From an uncultured Lachnospiraceae bacterium (GTDB lineage: Bacteria > Bacillota > Clostridia > Oscillospirales > CAG-272), in the NCBI GenBank assembly GCA_964570105.1, contig CAZMWM010000001.1:7803-71802 (forward strand): 64,000 nucleotides of DNA, in the 5' to 3' direction. Below are positions 23,623-35,190 of this stretch, one piece after another (within the stretch, counting starts at the first letter, position 1; each line of letters opens with the position of its first letter). Below the pieces are notes generated by a model. The model was given only the letters and a program-made list of their open reading frames with translations, did not search any database and was not told the origin of the DNA. The position numbers and the translations under genes were made by a program.

Positions 23623-25893
23623 ATGGCAAATCTCGTGATACTTGAGTCGCCCTTCAAGGCGACGAGCATTAAAAATTATCTCGGCTCAGGCTATAAGGTG
23701 ATAGCCTGTCAGGGACATATACGCGATCTCCCCAAGAGCACGCTCGGCGTGGATGTCGAAGGCGGCTTCGTTCCGCATTATATCAATATACGCGGAAAGG
23801 GAGACCTCATAGCCTCGCTGAAAAAAGAGGCAAAGTCCGCAAGCAAGATATATCTCGCAACCGACCCTGACCGTGAGGGAGAGGCGATAGCTTGGCATCT
23901 CGCCACCGCATTGAAGCTCCCGATAGAGGAAACGAAGCGAGTAACCTTTAACGAGATAACGAAGAGCGCGGTAAAAGCCGCGATAAAATCACCGCGCAAC
24001 ATCGATATGCAGCTCGTCGATTCACAGCAGGCGCGCAGGATACTTGACAGGATAGTCGGATACAAGCTGAGTCCGTTCCTTTGGAAAACGGTCAAGAGCG
24101 GACTTTCCGCAGGTCGCGTCCAATCCGTTGCAACAAGGATAATCTGCGAACGCGAGGACGAGATAAGGCGTTTCGTGCCCGATGAATATTGGCTTCTTGA
24201 CGCTTCCTTTATCGGAGAAAGCTCCCAGACCGTCAAGGCAAGATTTTACGGACTCGCTTCAAAAGGCTCAAAGCTCGAACTTAAGACCTCAGAGCAGACC
24301 AAAAGCATCGTGAGCGCGCTGAAGAACGCGGAATTTACCGTCAGCTCCGTGAAGAGATCGGTAAGACAAAAGCTCCCGTCTCCTCCCTTCAACACCTCGT
24401 CCATGCAGCAGGAGGCATACAAAAAGCTGAATTTCCAATCCCAATACACCATGCGTATAGCTCAGGAGCTGTACGAGGGCGTCAACCTCGGAAGCGAGAA
24501 CGGCGGTATCACCGGTCTTATAACCTATATGCGTACCGACTCGCTCCGCATATCCTCCGAGGCTTCGACGGCGACCAAAGCGTTTATTACCGAAAAGTAC
24601 GGAGAAGGATACGCACCGGAACAGCCGAGAGTTTACAGGTCGCGCGATAACGCACAGGATGCGCACGAAGCCATCCGACCGACAGACGTTACGCTTGAGC
24701 CGGATACGGTCAAAAAATATCTCTCCTCCGGTCAGTATAAGCTCTACAAGCTGATCTGGAGCCGTTACGTGGCAAGCCAGATGTCAAATGCAGAGCTTGA
24801 TACCGTCACCGCCGACATCAAAGCCGGAGATCATATATTCCGTACCAGCGGTTATATCGTGAAATTCAACGGTTATATGGCGGTCTACGACGCAGGCGAG
24901 GACGGCTCCGACGAGTCCGAAAAAAACCGTATTCCGGCTATCTCGGAGGGCGAGAAGCTCACTCTTAAGGAATTGACTCCGGCTCAGAAATTCACCGAGC
25001 CGCCGGCAAGATATAACGAGGCTACCCTCATAAAATTCCTCGAGGAAAAGGGCATCGGACGTCCGTCCACATTCGTTCCGATAATCTCGACGATCATCTC
25101 GAGAGGTTATGTCAAGCGCGACAAGCATTCGCTTATCCCGACCTCTCTCGGTGAGATAACTACCAAGCTGATGCTGGAGAATTTCCCCGACGTCGTAGAC
25201 TATAAATTCACCGCACAGATGGAGGATCGCCTCGACAGCATATCCGAGGGCGAAAGCACGATGTACGAGGTGCTCAACAGCTTTTATGACGGATTTGCCA
25301 AAAATTTAGAGACCGCATTTGAAAAAGCCAAGGAGCTGTCCGTCAACGTACCGGCTGAACAGACCGATATAATATGCGATAAATGCGGTAGCACCATGAT
25401 AGTCAAGAACGGACGCTACGGAAAATTTGCCGCATGCCCCAATTATCCCGAATGCAAGAACACCAAGCCCCTCGACAGCTCCGGAAAGCCCAAGCAGGAA
25501 GCACCCGAGCCTGAGCCGACGGGACTAAAGTGCGAGCTTTGCGGCGGAGCACTCGTTCTCAGAAACGGACGCTATGGCTCTTTCTATGCCTGCGAGAACT
25601 TCCCGAAATGCAAATTCACCAAGCAGCTCACCAAGGATACAGGCGTGGCGTGCCCCAAGTGCGGAGCAAAGATCGTCACAAAGCACGGCAAGAACAACAC
25701 CTTCTTCTACAGTTGCGAGAAATACCCCGAATGTGATTTTTCGTCTTGGGATCAACCGATGAAGGAGCGTTGCCCCGAATGCGGAGGGCTGATGCTGAAA
25801 AAGAAGGGCAAAGCGACCGTTTACTGTATGAATAAGGAATGCGGTCACACGGAGACTGCTCCGACCGATACGGAGAATGTGCCCAATGAATGA
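23623..25893 (+). CDS. topA: DNA topoisomerase I
   Basis: Has a Toprim N-terminus ([23 protein letters not shown]), the active-site region YMRTDS and several C-terminal CxxC Zn ribbons. Confidence 0.95.
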
Positions 25894-27220
25894 TAACGGA
25901 CGCAACGTAATGGTGATAGGCGCCGGGCTTGCCGGATGTGAGGCGGCTTATCAGATCGCCAAGCGCGGAGTTGAGGTCACCCTTTACGAGATGAAGCCGT
26001 CGCGCAAAACTCCGGCACACCGCTCCGAGGGGTTTGCAGAGCTTGTATGCTCAAATTCCCTTCGCTCGTCACAGCTCACGAATGCCGCAGGACTGCTTAA
26101 AGAAGAGCTTCGCCGCTGTGACTCCTTGATAATGAGAGCCGCAGATGCTTGCTCCGTCCCGGCAGGTGCGGCGTTAGCGGTAGACCGTGACCTGTTTTCC
26201 GAATTTATCACCAAGGAAATAAAAAGCTCCCCTCTCATAACCGTTGTGGAACGCGAGGTCACCGCATTGCCCACCGAGGGCGTAAGGGTGGTGGCAAGCG
26301 GTCCACTCACCTCCGACGCTCTTGCAAAAAGCATATCGGAATATTTCGGTGATAACGGTCTGAGCTTTTTCGATGCGGCGGCGCCTATAGTCGACGCACA
26401 GAGCATCGATCTTTCGATAGCGTTTGCTCAGTCAAGATACGGCAAGGGCGACGCGGATTACCTCAACTGCCCAATGGATAAGGAGCAGTACCTCGCTTTT
26501 TACGATGCACTCCTTCACGCGGAAGTAGCCAAGCTTCACGATTTTGACACTGAGGCTCAACGCGAGTTTACGGTTTTCGAGGGATGTATGCCGGTCGAGG
26601 TGATGGCGTCAAGAGGTGTGGACACCCTGCGCTTCGGACCGATGAAGCCCGTCGGTCTTACCGATCCGCGTACCGGAAAAGAGCCGTACGCCTGCGTTCA
26701 GCTTCGCGCGGAAAATAAGGAAAAGACTATGTTCAATCTGGTCGGATTTCAAACGCATCTCACCGTAAGCGAGCAGAAACGCGTTTTCCGTATGATCCCG
26801 GGACTTGAAAACGCCGAGATATTGCGTTACGGCGTGATGCACAGAAACACCTACCTTAATTCTCCGGAGCTTCTAAGCGAAACGTATTCCGCCCGAAGGG
26901 ATCCCACGCTCTTCTTCGCCGGTCAGATGACCGGAGTGGAAGGATATATCGAGTCGGCAGGCTCCGGTCTCGTTGCCGGTATAAATGCGGCGCTCACCGT
27001 CTCAGGGGGGCGCGAAGCGGTCTTTCCGGACACCACGGAGCTGGGCGCAATGGCAAAGTATATATCGAGCGGCAACGGCGGAAAATTCCAGCCGATGAAC
27101 GCAAATTTCGGCATAATACGTCCGCTGGAAAAGAAGGTCAAGGGTGGAAAGAGCGCACGAAATCAGGCACTTTCCGAACGCGCACTCGCATCTCTCGAGG
27201 AATTTTGGGGGACGCTCTGA
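25877..27220 (+). CDS. trmFO: Methylenetetrahydrofolate-tRNA-(uracil54-C5)-methyltransferase
   Basis: Has the [17 protein letters not shown] motif and the [10 protein letters not shown] and [18 protein letters not shown] blocks. The start is ambiguous (25877, 25886 or 25910). Confidence 0.9.
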
Positions 27221-27275
27221 CGGACGCGCGGATATACAGTCACGCACGAAAAGAAAGGATGCTTTTGAAAGTAAA

Positions 27276-28274
27276 ATGAAGATCATTGTCGACGTAATGA
27301 GCGGAGATAACGCCCCACACGAAACGGTAAGAGGCGCCCTGCTTGCGGCTCAGCGATTGGAGCACGAGCTGATCCTCGTCGGAAATGAGGATATAATACG
27401 TCTGATAGCGGACGAAAACGAGCTTCCGCTCACGCCAAACGTTGAAACGGTCAACACGAGCGAGATCATAACCATGGAGGATAACCCCATGTGTGTCCGC
27501 TCAAAAAAGGATTCATCGCTCGTAAAGGCGCTCTCTTTGCTCGCCGACGGAACAGGCGACGCTATGGTCAGCGCCGGAAACACAGGCGCTCTCTACACGG
27601 GCGCTTCGCTACTCGTCTCGAGGATACGGGGATTCAGAAAAGCGGCTATCGCCACGGTGCTTCCCTTGCAAACTCCGCTACTGCTTCTCGATGCAGGTGC
27701 GAACATAGTCGTCACAGACGAAAATCTTGAGCAGTTTGCGCTTATGGGATCTGCGTACAGCGAGCACGTGATGGGGGTACGTTCTCCGCGAGTCGGTCTT
27801 TTGAACAACGGTACGGAAAGAACGAAAGGCTCCCCATTGCTTCAGGATACCTATTGCCGTCTTGAAGAAAACGAAAATCTGAATTTCGTCGGAAATATCG
27901 AGGCAAAGACCTTGCCGTTCGGCGTTTGTGACGTGCTCGTGACGGACGGATTTTCCGGAAATATGATCCTGAAATACACCGAAGGGCTGGGTAGCTTCTT
28001 TATGAAGAAGCTCAAAGCAACGTACAGAAAGAATCTCTTCACCAAGGCGTCCGGCATTATGATCAAAAACGAATTTCATCATCTGATGAGAGAATTTGAT
28101 GCTTCGGAATACGGCGGTGCTCCGCTTCTCGGAATATCGAGACCGGTGATAAAAGCTCATGGAAACTCCGATGCCCGCGCGATAACGAACGCCATACACC
28201 AAGCCTGCGTATACGCGGAAAGCGGAATGATAGAACATCTTTCCGCGCTCGGAGAGGTTTCGGAAAAGACCTGA
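27276..28274 (+). CDS. plsX: Phosphate acyltransferase PlsX
   Basis: Sequence MKIIVDVMSGDNAP..., with SAGNTGA and VKAHG. The track's upstream extension from 27144 overlaps trmFO and is not PlsX-like. Confidence 0.9.
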   Translation: MKIIVDVMSGDNAPHETVRGALLAAQRLEHELILVGNEDIIRLIADENELPLTPNVETVNTSEIITMEDNPMCVRSKKDSSLVKALSLLADGTGDAMVSAGNTGALYTGASLLVSRIRGFRKAAIATVLPLQTPLLLLDAGANIVVTDENLEQFALMGSAYSEHVMGVRSPRVGLLNNGTERTKGSPLLQDTYCRLEENENLNFVGNIEAKTLPFGVCDVLVTDGFSGNMILKYTEGLGSFFMKKLKATYRKNLFTKASGIMIKNEFHHLMREFDASEYGGAPLLGISRPVIKAHGNSDARAITNAIHQACVYAESGMIEHLSALGEVSEKT

Positions 28275-28335: not shown

Positions 28336-29772
28336 ATGTCAGATAATTTTCACATAAATTCCATACAAAACAGGATAGGCTACGATTTTAAAGACACCGA
28401 GCTGTTGAGGCTCGCCCTTACCCACGTCTCTTCGGCAAACGACGCCGAAAATTCCAATCAGGGACTCAGCTTTCTCGGAAGAGCGGTACTTGAGCTTTTG
28501 GTGCGCGATCATCTGTATTCAAATTACAGCTATGCGTCCATAGAAACGCTCGAGAACACGGGCACGGAGGAGACCGCCGCTTTTTCCCTCGCCTGCAAAT
28601 GCGGCGAACAGCTCCGTTTGAGTGAGTTTGTTATCATCTCGAACGCGGCAACGGCGATCAAAAACAGTCCCGCGGTCGAAAAGGAGCTGTTCCTTGCGCT
28701 GTCGGCGGCTATATACAAGGACGGCGGAATGCCTGCTATACGCGCATTCATCATCCCGAAGCTCCGAGCTGTGATATCATCGGAAGCTCCGCATCTCGCA
28801 CACCGCGCTGTCCGCAGAGCTTCACCGAGCGCAAGCTCGGATGCCTCGCAAGACAAGCGCGACGCGTCCGCGAGCGTCTCGGCTTCGCGTACCGCCGCAA
28901 AAGCAACGGACGCCATCAAGAGCCTTATAACATCAAAGCTCCGCCGTCCGTGGCAGACCTCGGACGCAACAGATACCGCAAATGCTAAGCCAACTGACAA
29001 AAAAGCTTCAACGGCGGCGCGCAAGGACGCATCAAAAACGTCAACCGCCGAAACATCGCCCCGTAAGCGCACAGGCGCAAGGACTTCCGAAAAGGACACG
29101 TCCTCCGCTTTCGAGACGCCCTTCATCCGTGACGCACTGACACCTGTCAAGCTGAGTGAAAAACAGCAGAACGAGCTTGTTAAGAAAACCAAAAAAAGCA
29201 AACCGGAAGTAAAGACGGTAAACGCGTCGGCGCAGACCGAGACGGACGATGCCGCAAATTACAAATCGGCGCTTCAAGAATACGTACAGAAAAACGTACA
29301 TTCATCGACCGTGATGCTTGAATACAGGACAGAAAAAGCGGAAGGCGGCGCTGTATCCGTTGAGGTATACCTGTTTGACAGAAAGCTCTCAAGTGAGACA
29401 GGCGCATCCAAAAAGGATGCGTCACGCTTTGCCGCACGGTCTGCGTACCGCGCACTCACCGATGAAAAAAGCAAGGAAGCCGCGTGGTTTCGCGGTATAT
29501 GCTCGGATCCCACCCATCTGCCGCTACCACAAGGCTCGGAGCAGAACGATCACGTCTCACAGTTAAATCAGACCTTCCAGAAGCTCGGACACACCTCCAA
29601 CGCCCAACTGCTCTACGAACGCATCCCGGCATCAAACAAAAAGCTTTTCGCGGTCACTGTGAACGCCAACGGCAAGGAACTCGGCAGAGGCGAAGGAAAA
29701 ACGGTAAAAGAAGCGCGTCAAAACGCCGCAAAAGCAGCACTCGCTTCCCTTCCTAAGCTCACTTTAGTTTAA
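28336..29772 (+). CDS. RNase III-like pseudoenzyme with disordered linker and two dsRNA-binding domains
   Basis: Aa 8-145 align to the RNase III domain of the adjacent rnc, but the signature NERLEFLGD reads NQGLSFLGR and E..FEAL reads KELFLAL. Aa ~150-300 are a low-complexity S/A/T/K-rich stretch. Two dsRBM-like units span aa ~307-374 (YKSALQEY...GASKKDASRFAARSAYRAL) and aa ~404-472 (...GEGKTVKEARQNAAKAALASL). Confidence 0.8.
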   Translation: MSDNFHINSIQNRIGYDFKDTELLRLALTHVSSANDAENSNQGLSFLGRAVLELLVRDHLYSNYSYASIETLENTGTEETAAFSLACKCGEQLRLSEFVIISNAATAIKNSPAVEKELFLALSAAIYKDGGMPAIRAFIIPKLRAVISSEAPHLAHRAVRRASPSASSDASQDKRDASASVSASRTAAKATDAIKSLITSKLRRPWQTSDATDTANAKPTDKKASTAARKDASKTSTAETSPRKRTGARTSEKDTSSAFETPFIRDALTPVKLSEKQQNELVKKTKKSKPEVKTVNASAQTETDDAANYKSALQEYVQKNVHSSTVMLEYRTEKAEGGAVSVEVYLFDRKLSSETGASKKDASRFAARSAYRALTDEKSKEAAWFRGICSDPTHLPLPQGSEQNDHVSQLNQTFQKLGHTSNAQLLYERIPASNKKLFAVTVNANGKELGRGEGKTVKEARQNAAKAALASLPKLTLV

Positions 29773-29797: not shown

Positions 29798-30505
29798 ATG
29801 AACAATAACAATATAAAGGCACTTGAGGACGCCATCGGATACCGCTTCAAAGACCGTTCGGTATTAAGCCTTGCTCTCACCCATTCGTCGTACGCATACG
29901 AGCTTCGGCAAAAAAAGCTCCACTGCGACTCAAATGAACGGCTCGAATTTTTGGGCGACAGTGTCGTATCCATAATCTCCACAACTTATCTCTATACCGC
30001 CTTCCCCGAGCACACCGAGGGCGAGCTTTCAAGGCTCCGCGCCGGAGCTATCTGCACCGCTTCCCTATCCGCTTTTGCCAGACGCATATCGCTCGGTGAC
30101 TATCTGATGCTCGGATGCGGCGAGGATAAGGGCGGAGGACGGGAAAACCCCACCATCCTCGAAAACGCCTTCGAAGCCCTCGTCGGAGCTATATATATCG
30201 ACAGCGGTCGCGACATTGCCACAGCACAGCGGTTTCTTCTTCCGTTCATAAAGAGCGAGGTCGCCCTTGCGATCGAGAACGGAGCGACCGAGGATCACAA
30301 ATCACAGCTACAGCAGATAGTACAGCAGATGCCGGATCAAAAGCTTGAATATGTACTGACCTCAAAGAGCGGTCCGGATAACGCTCCGACATTCACGGTC
30401 GAGGCGAGACTAAACAGCAACGTTATAGGAAAAGGCTCGGGTACGTCCAAAAAACGCGCGGAGCAGGCAGCCGCTTGTGAAGCGTTGCGTTTTTTCGGCA
30501 AATGA
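29798..30505 (+). CDS. rnc: Ribonuclease III
   Basis: Has an intact NERLEFLGDS signature, ENAFEALVGAIY and a C-terminal dsRBD (GSGTSKKRAEQAAACEAL). Confidence 0.95.
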   Translation: MNNNNIKALEDAIGYRFKDRSVLSLALTHSSYAYELRQKKLHCDSNERLEFLGDSVVSIISTTYLYTAFPEHTEGELSRLRAGAICTASLSAFARRISLGDYLMLGCGEDKGGGRENPTILENAFEALVGAIYIDSGRDIATAQRFLLPFIKSEVALAIENGATEDHKSQLQQIVQQMPDQKLEYVLTSKSGPDNAPTFTVEARLNSNVIGKGSGTSKKRAEQAAACEALRFFGK

Positions 30506-30509
30506 GCCT

Positions 30510-31610
30510 ATGGGAGTAACGACCTTGAAAAGACACGTAAACGTCCCCATATTCATCCCGCATTACGGATGTCCGAACGCCTGTGTTTTCTGCAATCAGG
30601 TAAGGATAACCGGCAAGCCCTGCTTTGACGAACGCGATGTCATCTCCGAGATAGACGTGGCGCTTTTGACGGTCGATACCGAAAACACGGAAACGGAGCT
30701 TGCTTTTTTCGGCGGTAGCTTTACGGCTATACCGCGAGACGAGATGCTCTCACTGCTTGCCATATCGGATAGATATATCGCCGACGGAAGGATAACATCC
30801 GTACGTCTTTCCACGCGTCCGGATGCAATAGATACCGAGATACTCGACATTCTCGCCGCGCACGGTGTGAAAACTATCGAGCTTGGAATACAGAGCATGA
30901 GCGGCAATGTCCTCGACGCCTGCAAAAGAGGACATTCTCCGACCGACACGGAAAACGCTTGTAGGCTCATAAAACAGTACGGCTTTGAGCTTGTCGGTCA
31001 GATGATGGTCGGACTTCCCGGAGCAACGCCAAAGGACGAGCTTTTGACAGCCGAGACGGTATCTAAGCTCGGCGCGGACGGAGCGCGTATATATCCGACG
31101 GTGGTACTGCCGGGAACGGAGCTTTGTGAGCTGGAACAGTTGGGAGCGTACACCGCGCTGACGGTGGAAGAGGCGGCGGAAAGATGCGCAAACGTGCTTG
31201 AGATATTCAATGAGTACGGTGTGAACGTGATACGGATAGGTCTTTGCGCAAACGAGATACTTGCCTCCGAAGCCTCTCCCACCACTTATCACGCCGCTAT
31301 CGGGGAGCTTGCACGTGCCTTGGTATTCCGACGCAAGCTGGAAGCGTTATTTCTCAAAGCGCACTCGGAAGCACCGCTCGAGGGGAAGAGCGCCGAGATA
31401 TTCGTTCCGAAAGGAAAGCTCAGCCAAGCAATAGGACAGCACTGTTCAAACATCTCTTACCTTTGCTCGAAATTTTCTCTCAGAGAGCTTAAGCTCAGAG
31501 AAAGCGTAGATCTCAACGGCTTCGAGATATCGCTCGGAGCGATACGGCAACAGAACGTAACACCGCCACGAAAGGAGAACGATCACAACCATGCGTTTAC
31601 TGTCTCTTGA
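30510..31610 (+). CDS. Radical SAM protein (ELP3-like family found between rnc and smc in Clostridia)
   Basis: Carries CPNACVFC, a CxxxCxxC motif, near the N-terminus (IFIPHYGCPNACVFCNQ). ATG 30510 follows the rnc stop. Its 3' end overlaps the smc start by 20 nt. Confidence 0.8.
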   Translation: MGVTTLKRHVNVPIFIPHYGCPNACVFCNQVRITGKPCFDERDVISEIDVALLTVDTENTETELAFFGGSFTAIPRDEMLSLLAISDRYIADGRITSVRLSTRPDAIDTEILDILAAHGVKTIELGIQSMSGNVLDACKRGHSPTDTENACRLIKQYGFELVGQMMVGLPGATPKDELLTAETVSKLGADGARIYPTVVLPGTELCELEQLGAYTALTVEEAAERCANVLEIFNEYGVNVIRIGLCANEILASEASPTTYHAAIGELARALVFRRKLEALFLKAHSEAPLEGKSAEIFVPKGKLSQAIGQHCSNISYLCSKFSLRELKLRESVDLNGFEISLGAIRQQNVTPPRKENDHNHAFTVS

Positions 31611-34600
31611 ATTACACGGATTTAAATCCTTTCCGGATAAAACTCTGCTGAAATTCGCTCCCGGAGTTACCACCGTCGTTGGACCTAACGGAAGCGGAAA
31701 GAGCAATATCTCAGACGCCGTGCGTTGGGTGCTTGGCGAGATATCCTCGAAAAGTATGCGCGGAACTAAGATGGAGGACGTTATATTCAGCGGCTCGGAT
31801 ACGAGAAAGCCGATGAATTTCGCAGAGGTCTCCATAACGCTCGATAACCGCGAGGAGAACGGCTTTTCCCGTATGCCGATAGACTACGATGAAGTGACCA
31901 TAACCAGACGTCTGAGCCGAAACGGCGGCAGTGATTATTTTATAAACCGTCAGCCGGCAAGACTTAAGGACATCAATTCCCTGTTTATGAACACCGGTAT
32001 AGGAAGAGACGGATATTCTATCGTCAGCCAGGGCAAGGCGTCCGAGATAATCTCACAAAAGAGCGATGAGCGCCGTAACGTTTTCGAGGAAGCGGCAGGT
32101 ATCTCAAAATACCGCTACCAAAAAAACGAAGCGGAAAAAAAGCTTGAAGCCACGAGCTTGAATTGCGAAAGACTTGCGGATATCCTTTCCGAAAAGAAAA
32201 AAACGCTCGAGCGTCTTGAAAAGGATGCCGAGCGCGCAAAAAAATATCTCGACATATACGAAAAGAAAAAGGAAGCCGATATCTCTCTTGCGGTCTACGA
32301 CGTTCACCTGAACACAAAAAAGCTGTCCGATGCGGAGACAGAGTATAATACCGTCAAAGTCTCTCTTGATAATGCGGATAATAAGATATCGGATACCGAA
32401 GCGGAGCGCGATCGGCTGGATCTGCTTCGCTCCAAAGCAAAGGAGCAATTTTTCAGACTCAACAGCGAGATAGAAGAGCTTACCGATTCGCGATACAACC
32501 AAAACACCGGTGCACAGGTCATGCAGGGCGAAGTCAAAAATATGACCGCAAGGATCGAGGAATTAAACGGGGAGCTTGAAAAGCTGAATACGCGGCTCGC
32601 CGAATATATAAACGCGGAAAAAGAAGCCAACGATAAGCTGAGCAAGGCAAACGACGTCAAAAATGCCGCCGAGCAGAAAAGAAACGGCTTGAATGCCACG
32701 CTCAGTGAGCTTGATCAAAAACGGAACGGTCTTGAGCTCAAGATAGAAGCAATTCTCGATGATAAGGATGCGGCAAACGCGCAGATACGCAACGACAATG
32801 TGCGCATAGCCGAGCTTGACGGAACTGCCCGCTCGGACGAAAACAGAAGATCTCAGATCTCCGAGGAGCTTAAAAATGCCGAGGATACCATCACGCGTTG
32901 CAACGAAAGTATGCAAAGGCACAAGTCGAAGATGGACTCTTACGACGAGCAATCCGAGAAGATAAAGGCAACGGAAAGCGAGACTGCCAACGAGATATCG
33001 GCTCTCCGTCAAAAGATCGACGGTCTGAACGCAAGCGTCAGCTCGCTCGCAAGCGATCTGCGCGATATACGTACGCGTATCGATAGCCTGAAACGTATGG
33101 AAGAGCTTTTTGAAGGCTATCCGCACAGCGTTTCCGCTATAATGAACGCGGTAAAGACAGGTACGCTCTCGGGTATATGCGGACCTCTTTCACATATCTT
33201 TACCGTGAATACGCGCTACGCCGTACCGATAGAAACAGCTCTTGCTTCCACTCTCCAGAACATTGTTTGCGAAAACGAGGATGCGGCGAAAAGAGCGATC
33301 GAATGGCTTCGAAACAACAACGCCGGACGAACTACGTTCTACCCGTTGAATACCATGCAGGTCACCCCACTGAATATAGACGAGAAAACGCTTCTCTCAC
33401 ACAAGGGCTATCTCGGAATAGCCTCGGACCTCATCGAATACGAGCCGAAATATGACCGAGTGATCAAAAATCTTCTCGGAAGGACGCTGGTATTCGATAA
33501 TCTTAACAACGCCACCGCAATGGCTAAGGCTTGCGGATACCGAGTAAGGATAGTTACCCTTGACGGTCAACAGATCAACGCCGGAGGATCCTTCACCGGT
33601 GGCTCGAAGAAGCGCGACTCCGGACTGCTCAACAGAAGCGCCGAAATAGACAGACTTAACGCAGATATGCTAAAGACAGAGACGCTCAAGAACACGGCGC
33701 AGGAAGAGCAAAGCGAAGCCACTCGGATGCTTGCCAAGCTGATCACCACAGCCGAAGGATTTGCGACCAAGCTTAAGCTTCTCAACACGCTTTATCAAGC
33801 TGAGTCCAACCAATACGCGGCGTTCAAGGCACAGATGGATACGGTCTCGGAAACGAAAAACCGTTTGCTTGAAGAGCTTTCCGGCATAGCCGATTCCGGA
33901 GATCGGCGCGATGAGGAAAAAAAGCAACTGGATAACGACATTGCCGCAAGCGAAGATAAGCTCCGCATACTCGACGAAGAATATTCAAGGCTCGACGCCG
34001 AAAGAGGCGATGTCGAAAGCTCGATCTCGAGCAACTCAGCCCTGCTTCAAAACACTCAAATAGAAATAGCGGAATACTCCAAGGACGTGGAAAGCGCAGA
34101 ACGCGACCTTCAGCTTAAAAACACTTCGCGCCTTGAGTGCGAGAGCGAGATACAACAAAAAGAGGCATTCGTAACCAAGCTTCGGGAAGGGATCGCCGAC
34201 AAGGAAAAAAGCATTCTCGCATCCTCGAGCAAGGTCGAGGAGATGGACGCCGAGCTAAAGGAAAAGACAAGTGAACGTGAGCGCGCAAACTCGGAATCGA
34301 TAGAATACGACGGAAAGATATCCGCTTTGAATAACGACATCCAAGAGCTTATGCGCATGAGAGAGCACCTGTCAAACGACTTCACAAAGGCTGAGACGAA
34401 AAAAAGCTCGCTTGTAAGCGAACGCGACCGCATACTGAATTACGTGACCGAGGAATACAGCATCACCTTCTCCGAGGCTGAGGCCTTGGAATATCCGCCC
34501 GTGACCGAGGAGAACAGACACGAGATATCCCAACAGCTCAACGAGCTGAAATACAAGCTCCGCGGAATAGGCTCGGTCGATCCGTCTACCATAGAGGAAT

Positions 34601-35190
34601 TTAAGAAAGCCAAGGCTGATTACGACGAGATGAACTTGAATTTCGACGATATGCTGAAATCCAGAGAGTCGTACGCCAACGTCGTGGATCAGCTTGAGCA
34701 AAATATGCGTACGCGCTTCATCGAAGTTATCGGAGACATAAACGAAGCCTTCCAGCGCTCGTTCAGCGAGCTTTTCGGAGGCGGTCGCGCAGAGGTGGTG
34801 CTTACGGACATGGACGATGTGCTTCACTGCGGCATAGATATAAACGTTGCACCTCCGGGAAAGATAATAAAGAGCCTTTCCCTGCTTTCCGGCGGTGAGC
34901 AGGCGTTTATAAGCATCGCGCTCGTCTTTGCGCTCCTGCACGTAAATCCCTCCCCCTTCTGCATATTCGACGAGATAGAAGCCGCACTTGACGAGGTCAA
35001 CGTCGCGATGTTTGCGAATTACATAAAGAAATATTCAAACAAAACTCAGTTCATAACCATCACCCACAGGCGCGGCACGATGGAGGTCGGTGATACGCTT
35101 TACGGTGTCACTATGGCTGAGCGAGGCATCTCACGTGTGCTGACGCTCAACGTAAACGAGGTCGAGTCAAAGCTCGGCGTAAAGCTTTGA
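31591..35190 (+). CDS. smc: Chromosome partition protein Smc
   Basis: 1199 aa. Has an N-terminal Walker A (GPNGSGKSN), long coiled coils, a hinge, and a C-terminal LSGGEQ signature with Walker B (FCIFDEIEAALD). Confidence 0.95.
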   Translation: MRLLSLELHGFKSFPDKTLLKFAPGVTTVVGPNGSGKSNISDAVRWVLGEISSKSMRGTKMEDVIFSGSDTRKPMNFAEVSITLDNREENGFSRMPIDYDEVTITRRLSRNGGSDYFINRQPARLKDINSLFMNTGIGRDGYSIVSQGKASEIISQKSDERRNVFEEAAGISKYRYQKNEAEKKLEATSLNCERLADILSEKKKTLERLEKDAERAKKYLDIYEKKKEADISLAVYDVHLNTKKLSDAETEYNTVKVSLDNADNKISDTEAERDRLDLLRSKAKEQFFRLNSEIEELTDSRYNQNTGAQVMQGEVKNMTARIEELNGELEKLNTRLAEYINAEKEANDKLSKANDVKNAAEQKRNGLNATLSELDQKRNGLELKIEAILDDKDAANAQIRNDNVRIAELDGTARSDENRRSQISEELKNAEDTITRCNESMQRHKSKMDSYDEQSEKIKATESETANEISALRQKIDGLNASVSSLASDLRDIRTRIDSLKRMEELFEGYPHSVSAIMNAVKTGTLSGICGPLSHIFTVNTRYAVPIETALASTLQNIVCENEDAAKRAIEWLRNNNAGRTTFYPLNTMQVTPLNIDEKTLLSHKGYLGIASDLIEYEPKYDRVIKNLLGRTLVFDNLNNATAMAKACGYRVRIVTLDGQQINAGGSFTGGSKKRDSGLLNRSAEIDRLNADMLKTETLKNTAQEEQSEATRMLAKLITTAEGFATKLKLLNTLYQAESNQYAAFKAQMDTVSETKNRLLEELSGIADSGDRRDEEKKQLDNDIAASEDKLRILDEEYSRLDAERGDVESSISSNSALLQNTQIEIAEYSKDVESAERDLQLKNTSRLECESEIQQKEAFVTKLREGIADKEKSILASSSKVEEMDAELKEKTSERERANSESIEYDGKISALNNDIQELMRMREHLSNDFTKAETKKSSLVSERDRILNYVTEEYSITFSEAEALEYPPVTEENRHEISQQLNELKYKLRGIGSVDPSTIEEFKKAKADYDEMNLNFDDMLKSRESYANVVDQLEQNMRTRFIEVIGDINEAFQRSFSELFGGGRAEVVLTDMDDVLHCGIDINVAPPGKIIKSLSLLSGGEQAFISIALVFALLHVNPSPFCIFDEIEAALDEVNVAMFANYIKKYSNKTQFITITHRRGTMEVGDTLYGVTMAERGISRVLTLNVNEVESKLGVKL

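Follow-up and report, generated by a model that had tools for sequence, protein, structure and literature searches.

A Conserved, Catalytically Degenerate RNase III Paralogue with Two dsRNA-Binding Domains Is Encoded Immediately Upstream of rnc in Gut Clostridia

The open reading frame at positions 28336..29772 (+ strand) of the 64,000-nucleotide stretch of DNA analysed here (the window) encodes a conserved paralogue of RNase III with two dsRNA-binding domains (dsRBDs), and the data support a functional link between this protein, called pseudo-Rnc, and the RNase III (Rnc) encoded by the adjacent rnc gene. Members of this rare family combine an RNase III fold with the loss of metal ligands, evolve under purifying selection and are strictly syntenic with an intact rnc gene. 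We tentatively favour the view that pseudo-Rnc is a non-catalytic, dsRNA-binding partner of Rnc, and that both proteins may form a heterodimer with a single active site.

To our knowledge, the regulation of RNase III by a dead paralogue has so far been described only in eukaryotes and organelles, and no precedent for a bacterial pseudo-RNase III was found in the literature searched. In bacteria, RNase III is regarded as a symmetric homodimer, with full-length Rnc and Mini-III as the sole natural variants known (reviewed in PMC8708148), and in 2022 heterodimers of a catalytic and a non-catalytic RNase III subunit still seemed unique to the kinetoplastid RECCs (PMC9508840). If the proposed heterodimer exists, dsRNA processing under the control of a pseudoenzyme would be seen in a bacterium for the first time, and prokaryotes would have their own equivalent of the trypanosome KREN/KREPB pairs as well as of the Dicer-TRBP/Loqs arrangement. 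The use of one live and one dead subunit for single-strand cleavage would then have arisen more than once, and inferences on rRNA and sRNA processing that are based on rnc might not transfer to these gut Clostridia.

Gene and Domain Organization

The pseudo-Rnc gene starts with an ATG codon and encodes a non-catalytic RNase III paralogue of 478 amino acids. Its N-terminal domain (aa 1-158; 28336..28809, + strand) shows a catalytically degenerate RNase III fold, which is modelled confidently by AF2 (pLDDT ~85-94). Pfam assigns aa 20-142 to PF14622 (Ribonucleas_3_3; E 1.5e-16, 61 bits, cutoff 35) and also finds PF00636 in the protein (E 6.6e-8). The nuclease domains of the bacterial RNase III structures 3o2r, 3n3w and 2a11 match the N-domain in Foldseek with TM values of 0.71-0.78 (for 3o2r, TM 0.78 and rmsd 3.0 Å), and the alignment of the pseudo-Rnc and Rnc family profiles by hhalign reaches a probability of 99.9% (E 1.2e-32). 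PF00035 (dsrm) is matched in two further stretches of the protein (E 9.9e-23). RNase III and dsrm domains are the only ones that Pfam recognizes in pseudo-Rnc, in which it finds no zinc finger, RAM or PUF domain. The initial annotation had described this reading frame as an N-terminal RNase III homologue followed by a Ser/Ala/Thr/Lys-rich linker of about 150 residues and two dsRBM units, directly upstream of the real rnc; its coordinates proved exact and the domain layout has been borne out.

The canonical rnc gene (29798..30505, + strand) encodes the presumed partner, a protein of 235 amino acids that scores 230.7 bits against the equivalog model TIGR02191 (cutoff 166). Pseudo-Rnc reaches 122.2 bits, below the cutoff of 166.25, and is set apart from Mini-III by the presence of two dsRBDs and by its degenerate active site. 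It shares with bacterial class 1 Rnc (TIGR02191, PF14622/PF00636 plus PF00035) the fold of the nuclease domain, the L-x-FLG scaffold of the signature helix, the AIYxDxG helix and the type of C-terminal dsRBD. However, bacterial Rnc has a short hinge and one dsRBD where pseudo-Rnc has a disordered linker of 146 residues and two dsRBDs. Moreover, bacterial Rnc keeps residues Ec-E41, D45 and E117, which are absent from pseudo-Rnc, a protein found in addition to a genuine Rnc.

Loss of the Metal Ligands

The catalytic positions were checked by BLASTP against the neighbouring Rnc, by HMMER alignment to the RNase III structures of T. maritima and C. jejuni, and by hhalign. The signature motif, canonically NERLEFLGD, is degenerate in pseudo-Rnc (N41-QGLSFLG-R49; 28456..28482, + strand): Ec-E38 is replaced by Q42, E41 by S45 and D45 by R49. 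The codons of S45 (agc, 28468-70) and R49 (aga, 28480-82) are those already given in the initial annotation. In the second catalytic segment (V114-EKELFLAL-122; 28675..28701, + strand), as aligned by HMMER and hhalign, L120 stands at the essential Ec-E117/Aa-E110 position, while E117 of pseudo-Rnc occupies the Ec-D114/Aa-D107 position and keeps its acidic character. Thus, the earlier statement that every acidic catalytic position is lost holds for Ec-E41, D45 and E117 but goes too far for D114, an error explained by the presence of Asn at this position in the neighbouring Rnc itself (LENAFEAL). The same variant is found in many other listed Rnc sequences. Nor are the catalytic Glu and Asp residues merely offset, an objection that had been anticipated, since the BLASTP, HMMER and hhalign alignments of pseudo-Rnc reveal no displaced acidic residue that could rescue the lost ligands.

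The pattern is a property of the whole family. In the alignment of 32 members used for the catalytic positions (sets of 28 and 16 members served for residue conservation), the Ec-E41 position is acidic in none, being occupied by S, I, V, C, A, G or T, and the Ec-E117 position is L, F, Y, H, C or I in all 32. K, R, S, V, Q, T or E, never D, is found at the Ec-D45 position, with K or R in most members. The Ec-D114 position is E or D in 29 of the 32 sequences and the Ec-E38 position is Glu in about half of them. A possible co-evolution between the Asn of the partner Rnc at the Ec-D114 position and the acidic residue of pseudo-Rnc was considered and dropped, because Asn, Gly or Ala occur in many unrelated Rncs and the partner Rncs of L003 and L004 have Asp.

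Both Mg ions of RNase III share E117 as an essential ligand (PMC3867540). Since the carboxylates of the two-metal site have given way to S45, R49 and L120, pseudo-Rnc is expected to be unable to cut dsRNA by the RNase III mechanism. The Mucor protein R3B2, whose catalytic residues are also degenerate, still cuts ssRNA (PMC8136814), and for this reason the term "dead" refers here to the two-metal dsRNA mechanism only.

The scaffold of the signature helix has been maintained. The alignment of 28 members shows L44 and G48 without exception, and F46 and L47 in at least 90% of the sequences. Among these residues is the glycine described as "universally conserved" in RNase III domains (PMC9508840). 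In canonical RNase III, the subunit interface includes the signature helix, with the equivalents of L44, F46, L47 and G48.

Linker and dsRNA-Binding Domains

The region between the N-domain and the dsRBDs (aa 159-304, 146 residues; 28810..29247, + strand) is a basic, disordered linker (AF2 pLDDT <50; pI 10.1) rich in Ala, Ser, Thr and Lys (A23, S22, T20, K19, R11, D11), with a mean pairwise identity of 0.24. Motif A (aa 193-204, AIKSLITSKLRR; 28912..28947, + strand; family consensus ALKSLFSSKKRK) forms a conserved island in the 32-sequence alignment, and AF2 predicts a short helix at aa 195-198. Motif B (aa 263-275, FIRDALTPVKLSE; 29122..29160, + strand; family consensus FIRDALxPVxL[SP][DE]..RNxKPKK) is present in the window protein, in P0002 and P0004, partly in P0003, and in all the distant aligned members (P0053-P0070 and L002-L005); in the family alignment it is missing from the P0005-P0015/P0052 subgroup. 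Its residue P270 is at least 90% conserved, and the AF2 model contains a helix at aa 275-280.

The first dsRBD (aa 305-378; 29248..29469, + strand) was recognized by PF00035, by its AF2 fold and by hhalign to the dsRBD of Rnc. The second one (aa 405-474; 29548..29757, + strand) contains the best PF00035 stretch (aa 407-472) and is 33% identical to the dsRBD of the neighbouring Rnc (BLASTP, E 3e-6). Both are modelled as alpha-beta-beta-beta-alpha units with a pLDDT of about 85-92, at ~aa 308-375 (nt 29257-29460) and ~aa 405-471 (nt 29548-29748), respectively, where the initial annotation had located them. They are connected through a conserved helix in the AF2 model (aa 380-390; 29473..29505, + strand) in which two residues, W384 and F385, show no variation among 16 aligned members; when 28 members are aligned, conservation of F385 stays at 90% or more.

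Helix 1 of dsRBD1 (NYKSxLQEYVQK) has N308, K310, L313, Q314, E315 and Q318 invariant or nearly so, and K360 of the same domain is at least 90% conserved. In dsRBD2 the helix-1 region (general pattern xKSxLQExxQK, RNA-contact region 1) is partly kept, N411 and Q415 being invariant and S408 and K416 at least 90% conserved. The start of helix 2, canonically KKxA (RNA-contact region 3), is retained in both domains as KK/KxxK, and the GPxH loop between beta1 and beta2 (RNA-contact region 2) is missing from both in the family alignments. Few parts of the protein are as well conserved as the RNA-contact helices of the dsRBDs, which suggests that pseudo-Rnc binds dsRNA.

Linkage to rnc

In the window, 25 nt separate the pseudo-Rnc gene from rnc. 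A survey of this adjacency, proposed in the initial annotation, showed that in 12 out of 12 loci, including that of P0070, the pseudo-Rnc gene directly precedes an intact rnc in the same orientation. Across these loci the distance between both genes ranges from -4 to +132 nt, and the reading frames overlap in some genomes. The NERLEFLGD and FEAL motifs are intact in the Rnc of the window and in all 11 partner genes examined.

On the + strand, a consensus scan places none of its terminator-like sites in the interval that separates the pseudo-Rnc gene from rnc. From 25.5 to 36.5 kb, the scan returned 8 promoter-like sites, against 7.7 in shuffled sequence, and 23 terminator-like sites, against 16.1 (sd 3.9). 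Counts so near to those of shuffled sequence neither support a separate rnc promoter nor prove co-transcription. The Rfam scan, run over the whole window, gave no matches, neither to an rnc leader nor to any other known RNA element.

Possible Functions of Pseudo-Rnc

The initial annotation had raised two mechanisms, a heterodimer with Rnc that acts as a nicking or asymmetric enzyme and the sequestration of dsRNA, and the data are compatible with either. The heterodimer that we favour would work as follows. Pseudo-Rnc and Rnc would be produced from one transcript, and the dead RNase III domain of the former would pair with the RNase III domain of the latter. The resulting dimer would be asymmetric, having a single active site and three dsRBDs. 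In place of the staggered double cut that RNase III normally makes, it would introduce a nick into one strand or process only certain duplexes. Substrates would be captured or selected by the two dsRBDs on their tether, in a manner comparable to that of the TRBP/Loqs-type cofactors of Dicer. A broader proposal is put forward with greater reserve: Rnc might serve above all as an asymmetric nickase, or as an enzyme with a restricted range of substrates, within a natural heterodimer of a catalytic and a non-catalytic subunit that is guided by a tethered pair of dsRBDs and that would have evolved independently in this clade of gut Clostridia.

Conservation of the interface-helix residues L44, F46, L47 and G48 in pseudo-Rnc, which points to a potential for dimerisation, and the constant adjacency to an intact rnc argue for the heterodimer. 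However, the N-domain evolves much faster than that of Rnc (mean pairwise identity of 0.40 vs 0.61) and is degenerate in P0070, so that a tightly co-adapted interface with the slow-evolving Rnc is not suggested. Two other considerations speak against this pairing. If expression of the pseudo-Rnc gene equalled or exceeded that of rnc, most of the Rnc would be titrated into the nickase, with drastic consequences for rRNA processing. In addition, a simple heterodimer clamp needs no tether of 146 residues.

Cofactors of Dicer and Drosha (TRBP/TARBP2, Loqs-PB, R2D2 and DGCR8) carry two dsRBDs on flexible linkers, as pseudo-Rnc does, and capture or select substrates for an RNase III enzyme, which is the role proposed here; Foldseek also pairs the pseudo-Rnc model with R2D2, TARBP2 and Loqs-PB (ranks 28, 29 and 35). 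These cofactors dock to the helicase region of Dicer through a third, protein-binding dsRBD, whereas the presumed docking module of pseudo-Rnc is its dead RNase III domain.

Natural and engineered pairs of this kind have been described elsewhere. Engineered heterodimers of E. coli RNase III in which one subunit is inactive introduce nicks into dsRNA (Meng & Nicholson 2008; Conrad et al. 2002; both as cited in PMC3867540). The wild type/E117A heterodimer unites one live and one dead subunit, as proposed for Rnc and pseudo-Rnc, but it is a laboratory construct whose subunits differ by point mutations, and it has no extra dsRBD or tether. In trypanosomes, the KREN1-3/KREPB6-8 pairs (PMC9508840, PMC6800513) also place a dead RNase III-domain paralogue beside an active one, and the logic proposed for them, that one active site means one strand cut, is the logic proposed here. 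The trypanosome proteins, however, are eukaryotic and mitochondrial, belong to a complex of ~20 proteins and carry accessory zinc finger, RAM and PUF domains instead of dsRBDs. Moreover, their pairing is backed by cross-linking and genetics, whereas that of pseudo-Rnc with Rnc is one that we infer. The likeness of pseudo-Rnc to KREPB, a dead domain accompanied by a catalytic paralogue, is thus an analogy and does not indicate family membership.

Pseudo-Rnc and Rnc would provide a simple two-gene system, expressible in E. coli, for asking how RNase III specificity is altered by a dead domain and by dsRBDs in tandem. There is practical interest as well, since the system may offer a natural nickase for dsRNA or a protein that binds dsRNA without cleaving it.

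It is somewhat unlikely that pseudo-Rnc acts instead as a non-cleaving homodimer. Such a dimer, with four dsRBDs and a ligand-poor and mostly more basic valley, would bind dsRNA and leave it uncut. It could be a protector, competitor or sponge that shields duplexes, such as pre-rRNA stems and antisense pairs, from Rnc, or an RNA chaperone, and co-expression with rnc would determine how much binder there is per cutter. The shared fold, the loss of ligands and the conservation of the dsRBDs fit this model, and K or R at the D45 position of most members puts a positive charge at the Mg site. The E117K/A mutants of E. coli RNase III, which bind dsRNA without cleavage, also count in its favour. Catalytically inactive RNase III mutants have been used in binding studies, as cited in PMC8708148. 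R3B2, the only characterised protein of this architecture, forms homodimers (PMC8136814), which also weighs against the heterodimer, and the fast evolution of the N-domain would be easier if only self-matching were needed. However, a homodimer alone leaves the adjacency to rnc (12/12 loci, down to 26% identity) unexplained, although plain operon inheritance could account for it.

A structural or assembly factor outside nuclease biology, which would use its dsRBDs and basic tail to bind a specific structured RNA, such as pre-rRNA or the ribosome, independently of Rnc, has a low probability. Among the Foldseek matches of the model is chain c of the mitoribosome large subunit (ranks 30-34), which we take to be the RNase III-like protein mL44, and the conserved short motifs of the basic linker could be docking peptides. 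A further precedent is maize chloroplast RNC1, a group II intron splicing factor with dead RNase III domains (PMC8708148). RNC1 and mL44 are non-catalytic RNase III-like proteins with RNA-binding or structural roles, as pseudo-Rnc would be, but both are organellar; RNC1 has two RNase III domains per chain and mL44 is an integral ribosomal protein. Against this model, the sequence names no target RNA or partner, and a factor of this kind does not require the conserved tight coupling to rnc.

It is quite improbable that pseudo-Rnc has remained a nuclease that works by another chemistry or on another substrate. The acidic residue at the Ec-D114 position in most of the family and the Glu retained by many members at Ec-E38 would suit such an enzyme, for which R3B2 of Mucor lusitanicus provides the precedent: this protein has one RNase III domain, two dsRBDs and atypical catalytic positions, as here, and cuts ssRNA despite the substitutions (PMC8136814). 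Its family in the Mucorales unites an RNase III domain of atypical catalytic residues with one or two dsRBDs, and pseudo-Rnc fits this architecture. However, R3B2 is a fungal homodimer that is not encoded beside a canonical partner, and no R3B2-specific sequence or structure match, including the R3B2 RNase III structure itself, appeared among the 27 PDB matches or the best 50 Foldseek rows. The positions that are never acidic in the family (E41 and E117) include the ligand of both metals (PMC3867540), and the varied residues that replace them are unlike a new conserved active site.

Family Distribution and Selection

At 50% identity, the pseudo-Rnc family amounts to ~30 clusters in a set of 1.84 billion representative proteins. 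It was found in 5 of 185,579 GTDB species in a scan restricted to two peptide patterns, and all the named sources of its members are MAGs of animal-gut Clostridia. The JGI metagenome scan with the 28-member profile yielded no new family member and no further case of synteny, the best 80 loci being all of ordinary rnc length. A further profile search for homologues added only P0070, its candidates being mostly ordinary RNase III. P0070 is the most divergent member, and its N-domain is too degenerate for a Pfam call. In a comparison aimed at a recent tandem duplication within the clade, the clade's own Rncs ranked low when scored with an HMM of the pseudo-Rnc N-domain (65th-104th of 118), in a set biased by its selection for pseudo-Rnc-like peptide patterns.

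The dN/dS values are 0.11 for the N-domain, 0.10 for dsRBD1, 0.13 for dsRBD2 and 0.40 for the linker; they are approximate, since dS is near saturation (1.1-1.6). The gene is therefore not decaying, and purifying selection acts on all three folded domains. Although pseudo-Rnc evolves faster than all the neighbouring genes, the idea that it is a decaying tandem duplicate of rnc without a function of its own can hardly be credited, being contradicted by these selection data (dN/dS ~0.1 in the folded domains), by reading frames that stay intact throughout the ~30 clusters, down to 26% identity, by the invariant RNA-contact residues of the dsRBDs, and by the gain of a second dsRBD and of conserved linker motifs.

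With respect to bacterial RNase III in general, the initial annotation had stated that it has one dsRBD. This is true of typical Rnc but not of every member of the protein collection: P0086 combines intact catalytic motifs with three dsRBDs, and in P0083 and P0121, which also have intact motifs, a linker of ~135-145 residues precedes the dsRBD.

The pseudo-Rnc gene and its neighbours

The ORF at 28336-29772 (+ strand, ATG start) codes for a protein of 478 amino acids, here called pseudo-Rnc, and is located inside a row of same-strand genes. These are trmFO (25877-27220, +), plsX (+, probable start at 27276, end at 28274), the pseudo-Rnc ORF itself, rnc (29798-30505, +), a radical-SAM gene (30477-31610, +) and smc (31591-35190, +). 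The pseudo-Rnc ORF and rnc are the only RNase III-family ORFs within the window. The latter is a genuine rnc, whose product (Rnc) reaches 231 bits with the NCBIfam RNase III equivalog model (cutoff 166). A consensus scan of the + strand detected no terminator-like site between pseudo-Rnc and rnc, site counts in the region being about those in shuffled sequence. No RNA family (tRNA, riboswitch or leader) was found in the window (1-64000) with Rfam at gathering thresholds.

The mechanical ORF of plsX (27144-28274) has a GTG start at 27144 and overlaps the trmFO end by 77 nt. The true start is probably the ATG at 27276, where homologous PlsX proteins begin with MKIIVDV. On the minus strand, a 223-aa ORF (28530-29201) crosses the low-complexity linker of pseudo-Rnc in antisense; rather than being a gene, it most likely results from the skewed Ala/Ser/Thr/Lys codon composition.

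Domain architecture and active site

The initial annotation had described pseudo-Rnc as a catalytically dead RNase III paralogue with two dsRNA-binding domains (dsRBDs), and this anatomy, together with its coordinates, proved right on the basis of Pfam domains, an AlphaFold2 model, Foldseek matches and linker composition. The HMM search proposed there assigned aa 20-142 to an RNase III-like domain (PF14622, E 1.5e-16; PF00636, E 6.6e-8) and found two dsRBD stretches (PF00035, E 9.9e-23). In the AlphaFold2 model, for which 16 family members were the input, the N-domain (aa 1-158) is confident (pLDDT about 85-94), aa 160-304 are disordered (pLDDT <50), and two alpha-beta-beta-beta-alpha domains (aa 308-375 and 405-471) are separated by an additional helix (aa 380-390). 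Foldseek comparison of this model with the PDB matched bacterial RNase III structures, the N-domain aligning on the nuclease domains of C. jejuni and M. tuberculosis with TM 0.71-0.78, while the dsRBD part also matched R2D2, TARBP2 and Loqs-PB. The linker (A23, S22, T20, K19, R11) has a pI of 10.1.

Catalytic positions were placed by three independent, agreeing alignments: BLASTP against the adjoining Rnc (27% identity over 158 aa, E 1e-12), alignment by HMMER to RNase III of known structure from T. maritima and C. jejuni, and hhalign of a 28-member family profile against a 20-member Rnc profile (probability 99.9%, E 1.2e-32). The signature NERLEFLGD is changed to N41-Q-G-L-S45-F-L-G-R49, and the canonical D-x-F-E-A-L of the second segment to E117-L-F-L120-A-L. 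In E. coli (Ec) numbering, the changes are E38 to Q, E41 to S, D45 to R, D114 to E (acidity kept) and E117 to L. Ec-E117 (Aa-E110) is a ligand of both Mg ions, described as "highly conserved, functionally essential" (PMC3867540). No acidic residue shifted by 1-2 positions and able to rescue the site was found in the three alignments; therefore, the catalytic loss stands against the objection raised in the initial annotation itself, namely that the Glu/Asp residues might be present but offset. Its statement that every acidic catalytic position is lost holds for Ec-E41, Ec-D45 and Ec-E117 (as well as Ec-E38, now Gln) but not for Ec-D114, which is still acidic; that comparison had been made with the adjoining Rnc, which carries Asn at this position (LENAFEAL).

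In the adjoining Rnc (TILENAFEAL, around aa 120-128) this Asn occupies the Ec-D114/Aa-D107 metal-ligand position. The true Rncs of the clade read LE[ND]AFEAL, with Asn, or Asp in two genomes, after Glu. Asn, Gly or Ala are also present there in many unrelated Rncs from the loci compared, so this "catalytic" Asp is far less conserved than Ec-E41, Ec-D45 and Ec-E117.

Conservation and selection in the pseudo-Rnc family

A search of 5.8 billion proteins gave 16 full-length or near-full-length relatives (36-64% identity), and about 30 clusters at 50% identity, some 22 of them full length, were recovered when 1.84 billion cluster representatives were searched with a profile. Full-length members score from 687 to 180 bits in the latter, and ordinary RNase III at most 140. 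The only member named in NCBI is annotated as "hypothetical protein".

In the 32-sequence alignment, the Ec-E41 position (S/I/V/C/A/G/T) and the Ec-E117 position (L/F/Y/H/C/I) are acidic in none. The Ec-D45 position is mostly Lys or Arg, with Glu in 9 of the 32 and Asp in none, the Ec-D114 position is Glu or Asp in 29, and about half of the members keep Glu at Ec-E38. The signature helix retains its hydrophobic scaffold (L44 and G48 invariant, F46 and L47 in at least 90%), and AIY[KR]DGG[ML]P is conserved too. dsRBD1 shows almost no variation in its RNA-contact helix, NYKSxLQEYVQK. Both dsRBDs retain the basic residues with which helix 2 begins, and neither has the GPxH loop in the family alignments. 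The disordered linker evolves fast except for two short conserved islands, at aa 193-204 of the window protein (28912-28947; ALKSLFSSKKRK) and at aa 263-275 (29122-29160; FIRDALxPVxL[SP][DE]..RNxKPKK). The window protein and all more distant aligned members have the second island, which was lost in the subgroup of homologues P0005-P0015. Both islands look like docking peptides.

The gene is under purifying selection and evolves faster than its neighbours. Comparison of the window gene with its 64%-identical relative at locus L083 gave dN/dS values of 0.11 (N-domain), 0.10 (dsRBD1), 0.13 (dsRBD2) and 0.40 (linker), against 0.05-0.07 for trmFO and plsX; these are approximate because dS (1.1-1.6) is near saturation. 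Mean pairwise identity among 11 genomes is 0.40 for the N-domain and 0.48-0.49 for the dsRBDs of pseudo-Rnc, and 0.61 and 0.68 for Rnc.

Distribution and linkage to rnc

A pattern-based scan of GTDB (one genome per species, 185,579 species) found full-length matches in at least five species, a lower bound since two peptide patterns only were used. All five are MAGs, labelled either "Clostridia bacterium" (from sheep colon) or "Eubacteriales bacterium". The remaining 75 loci retained were ordinary rnc, as were all of the best 80 loci in a JGI metagenome scan.

The survey of rnc adjacency suggested by the initial annotation (the window, L001-L005, L081, L082, L165, L167, L168 and L169) showed that, wherever downstream DNA is visible, pseudo-Rnc is directly followed by a same-strand rnc with intact NERLEFLGD and FEAL. 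This holds even for L169, whose P0070 (26% identity) diverges most within the family. The co-occurrence with an intact Rnc is obligate. The two genes overlap by 4 nt (ATGA) or are separated by 2, 13-17, 23-25, 40 or up to 132 nt, and both products are probably co-translated. Beyond this pair, the gene order (dprA)-topA-trmFO-(plsX)-pseudo-rnc-radical SAM-smc-(ftsY) is conserved as well; the arrangement in other Clostridia of the scan is plsX-rnc-smc or rnc-radical SAM, and the additional gene is missing.

plsX separates trmFO from pseudo-Rnc in most loci, such as the window, L001, L003 and L004. It is missing in L002 and L005, where pseudo-Rnc directly follows trmFO, indicating that the link to rnc is more stable than that to plsX.

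Possible roles and comparison with known systems

pseudo-Rnc combines an RNase III fold devoid of the two-metal site, two dsRBDs with conserved RNA-contact residues and a long basic tether. RNase III domains work in pairs, and conservation of the signature-helix scaffold suggests that the pseudo-Rnc domain still does so. By analogy, its apparent role is that of a pseudoenzyme partner for RNase III. The initial annotation had proposed heterodimerisation with Rnc or dsRNA sequestration; this reading is supported in part, the identity of the paralogue and its association with rnc being solid and the two mechanisms being candidates compatible with the data. Operon linkage and precedents lead us to favour, tentatively, pairing with Rnc. 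Such a heterodimer would keep one active site and three dsRBDs and could nick or selectively cut duplexes, the tethered dsRBDs providing a built-in substrate-capture arm, as in TRBP/Loqs. Besides the strict, tight operon linkage, this possibility is supported by the KREN/KREPB pairs of trypanosomes (PMC9508840) and by the dsRNA nicking of E. coli RNase III heterodimers in which one subunit is dead (Meng & Nicholson 2008; Conrad 2002; as reported in PMC3867540). It is weakened by the quick divergence of the N-domain, extreme in P0070, where it is nearly unrecognisable, and by R3B2, the sole studied protein of like architecture, which is a homodimer (PMC8136814).

The main rival, rather unlikely in our estimation, is a dsRNA binder that would pair with itself, bind without cleaving, and compete with Rnc or shield its substrates, a role that the Lys/Arg at the Ec-D45 position of most members would suit. 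A structural RNA-binding factor similar to RNC1/mL44 is improbable, and an altered nuclease of the R3B2 type still more so. A duplicate without function is contradicted by the selection data and hardly credible.

pseudo-Rnc falls outside the Rnc equivalog family, in which catalytic residues are accompanied by one dsRBD, because the three features compared differ: its site is degenerate, its score with the equivalog model (122 bits) is under the cutoff of 166 and it has two dsRBDs. It also falls outside the KREPB family, since it lacks the zinc finger, RAM or PUF domains of those proteins. A 2021 review of bacterial forms included RNase III and Mini-III only (PMC8708148), and in 2022 catalytic/non-catalytic RNase III heterodimers were described as so far seeming unique to kinetoplastid RECCs (PMC9508840). 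No bacterial precedent for a pseudo-RNase III was found in the literature searched, in which subscription journals were thinly covered, so that this absence is no proof. Although the domains are familiar, a dead RNase III domain with a disordered tether and tandem dsRBDs, fixed before rnc, is new for bacteria in that literature. The finding concerns a small uncultured clade and rests on sequence and predicted structure; it should surprise RNA-processing specialists and is directly testable with two clonable genes.

Other unusual RNase III proteins

The profile search also recovered proteins with intact active sites. P0083 (351 aa) and P0121 (370 aa), with catalytic motifs SNEKLEFLGD / ADLFEAV, have some 135-145 aa of Lys-rich linker before a single dsRBD. 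They could represent a step in the evolution of the tethered layout of pseudo-Rnc, or a parallel to it. P0086 (409 aa) has one nuclease domain and three dsRBDs. P0075 (480 aa) consists of two complete RNase III units fused head-to-tail, in effect a covalent dimer, and P0093 (544 aa), as judged by eye from its sequence alone, appears to be the same kind of fusion.
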